A stretch of DNA of 32,000 bases, from contig DASZGF010000197.1 of assembly GCA_035939115.1 (NCBI GenBank), forward strand, positions 1 through 32,000, given 5' to 3'. The notes below the pieces were generated by a model. That model had not been told where the DNA came from. It searched no databases and saw nothing but the letters and a program-made list of their open reading frames with translations. Made by a program: the position numbers and the translations under genes. Below are positions 24,879-27,113 of the stretch, one piece after another (positions within the stretch are counted from its first letter, which is position 1; each line of letters begins with the position of its first letter). The DNA comes from Candidatus Binataceae bacterium (GTDB lineage Bacteria > Desulfobacterota > Binatia > Binatales > Binataceae).

Positions 24879-27113
24879 TTATCCGCTGCGCGACGGCTTT
24901 GTCCCAAGCTTGACCGCTACGTCAATAGTCTGACCATTGCGCACCAGCGTGACCGTTACCGTCTGACCCGCCGCCTTCGCCGCGATTGCGTCGCGAAAAT
25001 CGGCGTGATTTCCGACCGGCCTGCTGTCGATTGCGACAATCACGTCGTCCCGCATGATTCCTGCGCCCGCCGCCGGTCCGCGCGGCGCCAGGTATGACAC
25101 CAGCGCGCCGCCGCCGCCCGACTTGACTGTCAGACCCATCCATCCGCGTGGAACCTCGACTGTGGATACCAGGCTGCGCACTCCGGCCACGCCGCGGGCG
25201 AGGTTTTCAATCTCCTCCTTCTGTGTGAAGTCGGACGCGCTTCCGCTGATGTAGGCGCGTCCCGCGGAATCGACGCTCACGCCAACGTTGGGAAAGCCAT
25301 TGTCGGACAGGCTCTGGCGTAGATCCGCCTCGATGAATTCGGGCGCACGTGCGGTGCGCCGCGGACGCGCTGCGGCGCGATACCGGATTGCCGGCCGCCG
25401 CGCCGCAGGCTTTGGCGCGATAGTGGCGGGTGCGTATGGCGGCGGCCAACGGTAGGTTGACATCGATGGCGCCGGCGGCGACGCCGCCGCTATCAGCAAC
25501 GCGGCCGCGCATACCGCCGCTGGCGGCGCTATCAAAAGGAAAAACGCCCTGGCCCGCGCCGCCAGTCCTAACCCGCGGCGCGAGAGAAGCCTGACACATG
25601 CGCGGCGCAGCATCAGGCCGCTGCCGATAGCGACGGCGACGACTAGGGCGGGAAATAACAAGTAGTCGATCAGCAGCGCCGCGACGGCGGCATGCAAAGC
25701 GCTGATCGCGATCAACCCAACGATGAGCGTGACCGCGCGCCCGCGCCGCCGTGACGCAACCAGGGCGATAAGCAACGCCACCAGCCCCAGAGTGCTAATG
25801 AGGTTCGCGGCCTCCCTTATCTTCGCAAGCGCAACGCCGTGCAGAATTCTGGATATGGTGATGCCCCTACCGGCCAGCAGGACCTCACCGCTCAGCGCGA
25901 GCCCGCCGGCCACCGCGAGCGCGGCCATGAAGAGCGAGCGCACCACCGCCAACACATCCTGATTGTCGGCCGCCTCGACGACTTCGGGTTGCGGGGCGGA
26001 CGCCGGCAGCGGCACGGTAGGCGCCAGCGGTGGAGGCGGCGGTGCGGAATGTGGGCGCGGCGGTGGGGGGACGTGAGGGGCAGGAGCGCGATGTGTTCGC
26101 GGCACGGATGCGCGTGATTGCGGCGCATGAGCGGCAACGGGTTTTGCGGATGTCGCGGCAATCAGACGCGCTTTGAATTGGGCGGCGGTCGACGGCCGGC
26201 GGTCCGCCTCGCTGCTCAGCGCCTGATCGATCAGCATGCACAGCGGGTTGGGCAGATCGGCCCGCAGGGAGGCCAGCGGCGGAAAGCTGAATGGTTCGTG
26301 CTCCTGCGGATCGCGACCGGAAAGCGCGTAATGCAAAACTCCGCCCAGCGCGTACAGGTCGGTGCGCGGTTCGGACATTCCGCGATACTGTTCCGGCGCC
26401 GCGTAGCCGGGCGTCCCGTGTACGGTGCCCCGCTGGACCTGGAAATGGCGCGCGATGCCGAAATCGATCAGCTTGACAACTTCCGCGCCGCTGGTCTGCG
26501 GCGCGAGCATGATGTTGTCCGGCTTCAGATCGCGATGGACTAGCGGTGGCGTCTGGCCGTGCAGATACTCCAGCGCGTCGAGCACCTGCAACGCGATTTC
26601 GACCATCTCGCCGACGCCGAGACGGCCGCGGCTGGCGATGCGCTGCTGCAGGGTTTGACCCGGGACGTATTCCTCGACCAGGTAGCATCGGTCGGCCTCA
26701 TCGAAATAGTCATAGACCTGGACGATGTGGATGTTGCCGAGCTTGGCCAGACTCTCCGCCTCGCGGCCAAACATCAGCTTGCCTTCGGCAATGGCTTGCA
26801 GGCTGCGCGCCGAGGGGGTCAGTTCGGCCAGCGCGCACAGCCGGTTGCTCAGCCGCTGGTCGGCCGCGAGGTACATGAGCTTCTGCCCACCGCCGCCCAA
26901 CTCGCGCTCGATCCGGTAGCGGCCCGCGATGACCCGGCGCGACGATGCGGATGCAATCGGCGGGGTCGAGACGGACGCGCCGGCGCCGAGCGGGTCGCCG
27001 CAGCTATCGCAGTAGGCGCTGCCATCGAGGTTCTCAACGCTGCAGTTGGGGCACTTAATCACGCCTGATCTCTTCCCGCGTTCACAATTATACCGGCGCG
27101 CAGCCTTTGACAT
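24879..27113 (-). CDS. Multidomain Ser/Thr protein kinase: zinc ribbon + Hanks-type kinase (atypical lysine placement) + Pro-rich linker + polytopic TM region + BON + PDZ
   Basis: - Zinc ribbon: CPNCSVENLDGSAYCDSCG.
- Kinase: LGGGGQKLMY, FGREAESLAKL, HRDLKPDNIML, DFGIA, GTPGYAAPE.
- TM region: four or more hydrophobic helices (residues about 400-560).
- BON-like: DLRQSLSDNGFPNVGVSVDSAGRAYISGSASDFTQKEEIENLARGVAGVRSLVSTVEV.
- PDZ: GALVSYLAPRGPAAGAGIMRDDVIVAIDSRPVGNHADF...VTVTLVRNGQ.

The start is uncertain. ATG 27113 is chosen because the track start at 27173 leaves only 18 nt to the divergent gene. Confidence 0.85.
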   Translation of the reverse strand: MSKAARRYNCERGKRSGVIKCPNCSVENLDGSAYCDSCGDPLGAGASVSTPPIASASSRRVIAGRYRIERELGGGGQKLMYLAADQRLSNRLCALAELTPSARSLQAIAEGKLMFGREAESLAKLGNIHIVQVYDYFDEADRCYLVEEYVPGQTLQQRIASRGRLGVGEMVEIALQVLDALEYLHGQTPPLVHRDLKPDNIMLAPQTSGAEVVKLIDFGIARHFQVQRGTVHGTPGYAAPEQYRGMSEPRTDLYALGGVLHYALSGRDPQEHEPFSFPPLASLRADLPNPLCMLIDQALSSEADRRPSTAAQFKARLIAATSAKPVAAHAPQSRASVPRTHRAPAPHVPPPPRPHSAPPPPPLAPTVPLPASAPQPEVVEAADNQDVLAVVRSLFMAALAVAGGLALSGEVLLAGRGITISRILHGVALAKIREAANLISTLGLVALLIALVASRRRGRAVTLIVGLIAISALHAAVAALLIDYLLFPALVVAVAIGSGLMLRRACVRLLSRRGLGLAARARAFFLLIAPPAAVCAAALLIAAASPPAPSMSTYRWPPPYAPATIAPKPAARRPAIRYRAAARPRRTARAPEFIEADLRQSLSDNGFPNVGVSVDSAGRAYISGSASDFTQKEEIENLARGVAGVRSLVSTVEVPRGWMGLTVKSGGGGALVSYLAPRGPAAGAGIMRDDVIVAIDSRPVGNHADFRDAIAAKAAGQTVTVTLVRNGQTIDVAVKLGTKPSRSG

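Follow-up and report, generated by a model that had tools for sequence, protein, structure and literature searches.

The window analyzed here, a 32,000-nt stretch from an uncultured soil bacterium of the Binatia (Candidatus Binataceae; contig DASZGF010000197.1, positions 1 to 32,000), carries on its minus strand a single open reading frame (ORF; 24879–27113) that encodes 744 residues when read from the ATG at 27113, on which all residue numbers given here are based. Its translation, Pfam and a match to a public metagenome protein (P0001) identified the whole gene as a receptor-type Ser/Thr kinase. The Hanks-type protein kinase domain (residues 62–330; 26124–26930, minus strand, as are all features of this gene) matched Pfam Pkinase (PF00069) with 117.4 bits against a gathering score of 31.7, and was also recognized by Foldseek and in an AlphaFold2 (AF2) model, which showed a bilobal kinase fold with a predicted local distance difference test score (pLDDT) of 91.5 and a predicted template modeling score (pTM) of 0.88. 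The domain belongs to a family of bacterial kinases, referred to here as the loop-lysine family, in which the ATP-anchoring lysine appears to have moved out of strand beta3 and now opens strand beta2.

The glycine-rich loop (G-loop) of the query reads GGGGQKLMY from G73 onward (26871–26897), with a lysine, K78 (AAG, 26880–26882), as its sixth residue, and strand beta3 reads RLCALAEL (26820–26843; CALAEL starting at C93), so that the position of the invariant lysine of the VAIK motif is held by an alanine, A96 (26826–26828). The remaining catalytic signatures are all present: the alphaC glutamate E118 of FGREAE (26760–26762), the catalytic loop HRDLKPDN with Asp 195, Lys 197 and Asn 200 (26514–26537), the metal-binding DFG motif (26457–26465), and the APE motif that closes the activation segment (26391–26399). 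An initial annotation of this gene had reported the alanine in place of the VAIK lysine, a G-loop lysine at the position used by the eukaryotic WNK kinases, and otherwise intact signatures, and our analysis bore out each of these points, along with the codon coordinates given there.

The assignment of A96 depends on the alignment register of beta3. In MAFFT alignments, K78 occupied the third-glycine position of the G-loop (WNK1 K233, PKA G55) and A96 occupied the VAIK lysine position (WNK1 C250, PKA K72, PknB K40), with PknB carrying Ser23 at the position of K78. The WNK1 sequence used for this was verified residue by residue against PDB 5w7t, and the PknB sequence is that of M. tuberculosis. 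MAFFT adds one residue in the beta2–beta3 hairpin, which sets CALAEL against VAWCEL in WNK1, VAVKVL in PknB and YAMKIL in PKA. The nearest canonical relatives have a hairpin of equal length (RxCAVKEM compared with RxCALAEM) and place their lysine over A96 without a gap, and the CALA motif persists in a few members of the family whose hairpin is one residue shorter. On the basis of the MAFFT alignments, the gap-free comparison with these sisters, and the retention of CALA in the shorter hairpins, we assigned A96 as the VAIK position. L95 had been the candidate for this position in a gapless phmmer alignment to S. aureus PknB, a register that MAFFT and the gap-free CAVKEM comparison ruled out. 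Beta3 has no lysine in either register (L95 or A96), and in the AF2 model beta2 begins at K78 and A96 lies within beta3. Alignment with WNK1 and PknB, proposed as a check in the initial annotation, hence revealed no lysine at the canonical beta3 position.

We then asked how widely this arrangement is conserved. A search over 5.8 billion proteins identified eight full-architecture orthologues (69–100% identity) and more than 100 proteins of about 500 residues whose kinase domains are 45–55% identical to that of the query, all of which carry GGGG[MQ]K together with CALAE[LMV]; a separate exhaustive search over 1.84 billion cluster representatives brought in further diverse relatives. For the covariation count we drew on 268 proteins, which contain 175 loop-lysine domains and 134 canonical domains. 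A lysine at G-loop position 6 was accompanied by alanine at the beta3 position in 174 domains and by serine in one, while a lysine at the beta3 position was accompanied by G, A, S, T or N in the loop in 134 domains, and lysine at both positions was found in none. The loop lysine is thus present in 175/175 family domains and 0/134 canonical relatives (Fisher p = 3e-91 when phylogeny is ignored), although the swap goes back to just one or two evolutionary events and has persisted in sequences as far apart as about 39% identity. The survey of homologues that the initial annotation had called for therefore gave perfect covariation of the two positions.

The rest of the active site has been retained in the same 175 loop-lysine domains: the alphaC glutamate, the catalytic-loop lysine and the catalytic-loop asparagine are each found in 175/175, and the HRD-type aspartate and the DFG aspartate in 173/175. 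When we compared the family with the 22 nearest canonical (CAxKE) domains, counting as discriminating any column that is at least 85% conserved in the 175 family domains and differently conserved at 60% or more in the 22, we found exactly two such columns, K78 and A96. The two residues have been cleanly exchanged while the catalytic scaffold is otherwise unchanged, a pattern that resembles compensation, not decay. One family member, P0154, has serine for alanine at the old lysine position (CALSEI), an additional residue in the G-loop (GDGGaMK), and YSD for YRD, and may be a genuinely degenerating member.

To place the family among known kinases, we compared it with solved structures and with its relatives. 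The top sequence matches among solved structures were all bacterial, comprising S. aureus Stk1/PknB, StkP, and M. tuberculosis PknB, PknA and PknG, with the best at E = 1e-29 and 30–31% identity. The top Foldseek matches in the PDB were 4eqm, 5u94, 1o6y and 4ow8, at template modeling (TM) scores of 0.7–0.8 (S. aureus PknB; M. tuberculosis PknB, PknA and PknI), while WNK3 and WNK1 structures ranked only 31 and 37 in the list. With the two swap columns masked, the mean identity of the query subfamily was 47% to the main loop-lysine branch, 43% to the canonical sisters, 35% to PknB, 26% to WNK1, and 25% to PKA. In a neighbor-joining (NJ) tree built from a MAFFT L-INS-i alignment with Kimura distances and 50 bootstraps, WNK1 fell inside the bacterial loop-lysine group in 3/50 bootstraps. 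A first NJ tree, built from BLOSUM distances over phmmer match columns, had joined the query subfamily to degenerate long-branch domains, a placement we judged to be long-branch attraction.

From this, we concluded that the resemblance to WNK is, on the sequence and tree evidence, convergent, neither inherited from eukaryotes nor donated to them: the bacterial matches are the best, identity to PknB exceeds that to WNK1, WNK1 enters the group in just 3 of 50 bootstraps, and the swap arose in a bacterial clade whose nearest members retain the G-loop glycine and the beta3 lysine (CAVKEM). The label "WNK-type" given to the kinase in the initial annotation consequently stands for the position of the lysine and fails for descent, given 26% identity to WNK1 against 35% to PknB. 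In a scan of 185,579 species, with one genome each, the family G-loop pattern yielded 206 confirmed relatives, and the best 80 of these 206 came nearly all from Candidatus Binataceae or "Deltaproteobacteria" metagenome-assembled genomes (MAGs), with one from an Acidiferrales MAG. The pattern used, [LI]G[GE]G[GA][MQ]KxVY, leaves out the query's own QKLMY subfamily, so this distribution covers the other members; on this basis, the loop-lysine family is almost entirely confined to Binatia genomes. The HisF encoded in the window, at 78–84% identity to named Binatia proteins, assigns the source of the query to the Binatales/Binataceae.

The start of the kinase gene is ambiguous. The frame stays open upstream of the ATG to a TTG at 27173 (long ORF 24879–27173, minus strand), giving three in-frame starts: this TTG, the ATG at 27113, and a GTG at 27060–27062. 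The GTG has GGGAAGAG, a Shine-Dalgarno-like box at 27070–27077, seven bases upstream, and P0001, which is 100% identical to the query protein, is 727 residues long, a length that fits this start. Because of the upstream box and the agreement with P0001, the GTG is more likely to be the true start, with a product of 727 residues. An isolated TATAAT lies near the gene start at 27087–27092 (minus strand); our promoter scan upstream of the kinase gene found no full sigma-70 promoter.

Outside the kinase domain, the protein carries an N-terminal zinc ribbon, KCPNCSVENLDGSAYCDSCGDPL (residues 20–42; 26988–27056), seen as two CxxC pairs and as a Pfam Zn_Ribbon_1 match (E = 3.7e-5) whose 23.8 bits fall slightly below the 25-bit cutoff. 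A Kyte-Doolittle scan detected a membrane region of five hydrophobic segments (25479–25949) at about residues 389–413, 436–454, 460–482, 485–504 and 523–545. It is followed by a BON domain (residues 594–654; 25152–25334; Pfam 35.5 bits, cutoff 27) and a PDZ domain (residues 655–736; 24906–25151; Pfam PDZ_2, 54.9 bits). The BON domain had been recognized in the initial annotation, which was silent on the PDZ domain and the zinc ribbon. The odd number of membrane segments places the C-terminus outside the cytoplasm, and the Arg-rich loops after segments 2 and 4 are compatible with the positive-inside rule; the predicted topology thus has a cytoplasmic kinase and a periplasmic BON-PDZ region, which probably senses an envelope signal. 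A proline-rich low-complexity linker, PPPPRPHSAPPPPPLAPTVPLP (residues 331–388; 25950–26123), joins the kinase domain to the first membrane segment, and it is probably in this region that the longer orthologues (812–854 residues) mainly differ.

Other family members combine the kinase domain with different partners. When C-terminal domains were tallied over 60 family representatives, we found a zinc ribbon in 15, TPR in five, BON+PDZ in five (the query and its orthologues only), Sel1 in four, and FGE-sulfatase and BamE in three each; P0125 and P0122 are among the representatives in which a loop-lysine kinase domain is fused to FGE-sulfatase, Sel1 repeats, TPR or BamE. Since BON+PDZ is found only in the query subfamily, BON is not tied to the lysine swap. 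From this variety of fusions, the non-canonical catalytic core seems to have been put to repeated use as a general signaling module.

Within the window, the query kinase is flanked by genes for an enoyl-CoA hydratase, an acyl-CoA dehydrogenase, a luciferase-like oxidoreductase, and an ISL3 transposase, and the same neighbors adjoin a 79% identical orthologue (locus L081). The ISL3-family transposase (DDE_Tnp_ISL3 plus HTH; 29783–30772, plus strand) lies beyond the luciferase-like gene amid large overlapping ORFs on both strands, and is probably an insertion in the query genome, since the equivalent place in L081 lacks a transposase. Two further ORFs of the window stood out. A 766-residue ORF at 3327–5627 (minus strand) matches class-III aminotransferases in its C-terminal half only (best stretch, residues 341–538), with no Pfam match in its N-terminal 340 or so residues, and a 357-residue ORF at 20854–21927 (minus strand), downstream of a putative cyclase gene, has no Pfam match, like its 359-residue counterpart at the same position in L081 (13101–14180).

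The genes of the main paralogous branch lie in a different setting (loci L001–L080), a same-strand cluster in the order FHA protein, zinc-ribbon/DUF6677 ORF, kinase, PHP, spanning for example 3805–8217 in L053 and 4163–8218 in L029. A protein with two FHA domains is encoded upstream of the kinase in 79/79 main-branch loci, and a small zinc-ribbon/DUF6677 membrane ORF lies between the FHA gene and the kinase in 51 loci. Direct BLAST, by which these neighbors were counted, placed a gene for a PHP-domain phosphoesterase downstream in 62 of the 74 main-branch loci with enough sequence, beginning at a median of 54 nt past the kinase stop (7–80 nt). The loop-lysine kinase is the only kinase seen in this cluster. 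FHA domains bind phosphothreonine, and the PHP protein may be the phosphatase that serves this kinase, a role usually filled by PP2C. With a reader (FHA), a candidate eraser (PHP) and a sole kinase as the writer, a working kinase would be expected, on evidence that comes from the paralogues.

Taking these observations together, we consider it probable, at roughly 0.7, that the query is an active membrane Ser/Thr kinase in which K78 replaces the function of the beta3 lysine. In the mechanism we propose from the sequence, the small alanine at the old lysine site would give space for the long K78 side chain reaching in from the G-loop, K78 would bind the alpha and beta phosphates of ATP and pair with the alphaC glutamate E118, and phosphotransfer would be retained through the intact HRD aspartate, the catalytic-loop lysine and asparagine, and the DFG aspartate, in a cytoplasmic kinase connected by the five predicted helices to the periplasmic BON and PDZ domains. 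There is precedent for such a design, as the beta2 lysine is catalytically essential in both WNK1 and POMK (PMC10211241; PMC1821047), returning the lysine to beta3 in POMK keeps or improves activity (PMC10211241), and Kannan et al. set out this logic for both WNK and a choline/aminoglycoside kinase-like subfamily (PMC1821047). Several points weigh against this reading. The loss of the VAIK lysine makes the protein a pseudokinase in the formal, sequence-based sense; the query subfamily and the main branch form one clade in the NJ tree from all data, but in only 12/50 bootstraps; no FHA protein or phosphatase is found near the query kinase in the window, where its neighbors are metabolic genes; and the FHA/PHP cluster belongs to the paralogous branch, not to the query locus.

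A first alternative is that the query is a true pseudokinase that transfers no phosphate, keeping its fold, and perhaps the binding of nucleotide, for scaffolding or allosteric signaling; K78 would then be conserved solely for ATP binding or for the stability of the loop. The canonical lysine is, after all, missing in every family member, all seven catalogued bacterial pseudokinase families have members without it, some of them predicted ATP binders, and the query locus lacks an FHA partner or phosphatase. Those catalogued families, however, mostly lose HRD and/or DFG residues as well, whereas here the HRD aspartate, the catalytic-loop lysine and asparagine, the DFG aspartate, the alphaC glutamate, and APE are 98–100% conserved, and only the two compensating positions differ from active-looking sisters. 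Such strong constraint on the catalytic residues favors an active enzyme over a decaying pseudokinase, the main-branch operon supplies phosphothreonine readers and no second kinase was seen there, and WNK1 and POMK show that the lysine swap is compatible with catalysis (PMC10211241), which together leave the pseudokinase alternative unlikely, if the most serious competitor. We give virtually no weight to the explanation that the missing lysine is an artefact of alignment or annotation, or that a gene in decay has recently been inactivated by mutation. In its favor is the one-residue register shift of the gapless alignment; against it, beta3 has no lysine in either register, the motif is invariant in the eight orthologues (69–100% identity) and in more than 160 paralogues, and the ORF is intact with synteny kept in the 79% identical orthologue.

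A different possibility is that the protein is a full WNK-type sensor, directly regulated by chloride or osmotic conditions, with the BON domain (OsmY family) marking an osmosensing role, the analogy drawn in the initial annotation. K78 does sit at the position of the WNK catalytic lysine, a BON domain is present, and a two-residue PP insert precedes HRD (TPPLVHRD) much as in WNK1 (TPPIIHRD). The stretch with the insert, GQTPPLVHRDLKPDN (26514–26550), resembles TRTPPIIHRDLKCDN of WNK1; it is, however, also found in the canonical sisters, and is therefore older than the lysine swap and unlinked to it. According to established structural work on WNK1, its chloride pocket is formed by DLG with F283 as a site residue; the query has DFG instead, and F283 aligns with a valine. 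The Pfam scan detected no WNK accessory domains, BON+PDZ is limited to 5 of the 60 family representatives, and similarity to WNK is no greater than to PKA. The osmosensing analogy accordingly did not hold up, and we regard a full WNK-type sensor as highly improbable. By analogy with the WNK kinases, one could imagine more generally that the relocated lysine makes the active site responsive to a small anion, ionic strength or crowding, a speculation to which we would give long odds. If it were true, Ser/Thr kinases gated by ions or osmolarity would have arisen independently as a family in the Binatia, with the BON-PDZ member tying such gating to a signal from the envelope and the main branch feeding it into an FHA/PHP phospho-relay.

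Besides WNK, POMK is the other known case in which this lysine has migrated. An independent, strictly conserved bacterial case shows the beta3-to-beta2 move of the lysine to be a repeatable evolutionary solution, and the two-residue difference from canonical sisters offers a clean natural system for asking how an "invariant" residue moves, what a viable intermediate looks like, and how epistasis ties the two sites together; the sister comparison also bears on what the move changes, if anything, in regulation, nucleotide use and inhibitor sensitivity. Motif-based pseudokinase calling would mislabel the whole loop-lysine family as dead. The cluster of FHA, zinc ribbon, kinase and PHP genes, in turn, points to an unstudied phospho-signaling module in the uncultured phylum Binatota.

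Lastly, we compared the query with known systems. Like WNK1 (PDB 5w7t, 1T4H), it begins beta2 with a lysine at the third-glycine position (K78 = K233), has a small non-basic residue where VAIK has its lysine (A96 = C250), and retains the alphaC glutamate, HRD, catalytic asparagine and APE. It differs in having DFG where WNK has DLG, in lacking autoinhibitory, CCT or PF2 domains (Pfam detected the zinc ribbon, Pkinase, BON and PDZ only), and in having the architecture of a bacterial membrane receptor kinase; it is not closer to WNK1 (26%) than to PKA, and sequence, fold and trees all place it with bacterial PknB-like kinases. The analysis turned up no sign of chloride sensing. With PknB, Stk1 and StkP it has in common a cytoplasmic kinase, a membrane segment and an extracytoplasmic sensor, and its family paralogues lie in an operon with an FHA protein, but its sensor is BON+PDZ rather than PASTA and it has five predicted helices rather than one. 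Compared with PknB specifically, it lacks the beta3 lysine (PknB K40) and has a lysine where PknB has Ser23. The vertebrate O-mannose kinase POMK (SGK196) has likewise moved its VAIK lysine to beta2 and tolerates swapping it back (PMC10211241), but POMK rewires HRD, DFG and the alphaC glutamate and phosphorylates a sugar, whereas the query family keeps the other canonical motifs.

Among bacterial proteins, the pseudokinase families ActPs1-3, GLW, CP1, DYD and DLHK share the Pkinase fold and have all or many members without the VAIK lysine, but they replace it by arginine and/or lose HRD or DFG residues. Seven pseudokinase families are listed in a 2025 atlas of about 300,000 bacterial Ser/Thr kinases and in the review that accompanies it; these data sets are based on RefSeq/UniProt and would under-sample Binatia MAGs. 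No catalogued bacterial pseudokinase family is described with a G-loop lysine together with intact HRD, DFG and alphaC glutamate. A 2007 microbial kinome paper named WNK as the only functional eukaryotic protein kinase (ePK) family without K72 (PMC1821047), and our full-text literature searches, including those for WNK-like bacterial and Binatota kinases, found no bacterial kinase with a WNK-type relocation of the lysine, in line with the initial annotation, which knew of no characterized bacterial example. The loop-lysine family is thus apparently a bacterial family with a convergent lysine relocation that is not yet described. Its closest points of comparison are uncharacterized canonical metagenomic relatives such as P0151, P0155 and P0171 (GGGGMGMVY...CAVKEM), which are 43–48% identical and share its hairpin length, the Cys-Ala before the lysine position, the PP insert, and the YRD/HRD loop, and which differ from it consistently at exactly two positions, with glycine for K78 and lysine for A96.

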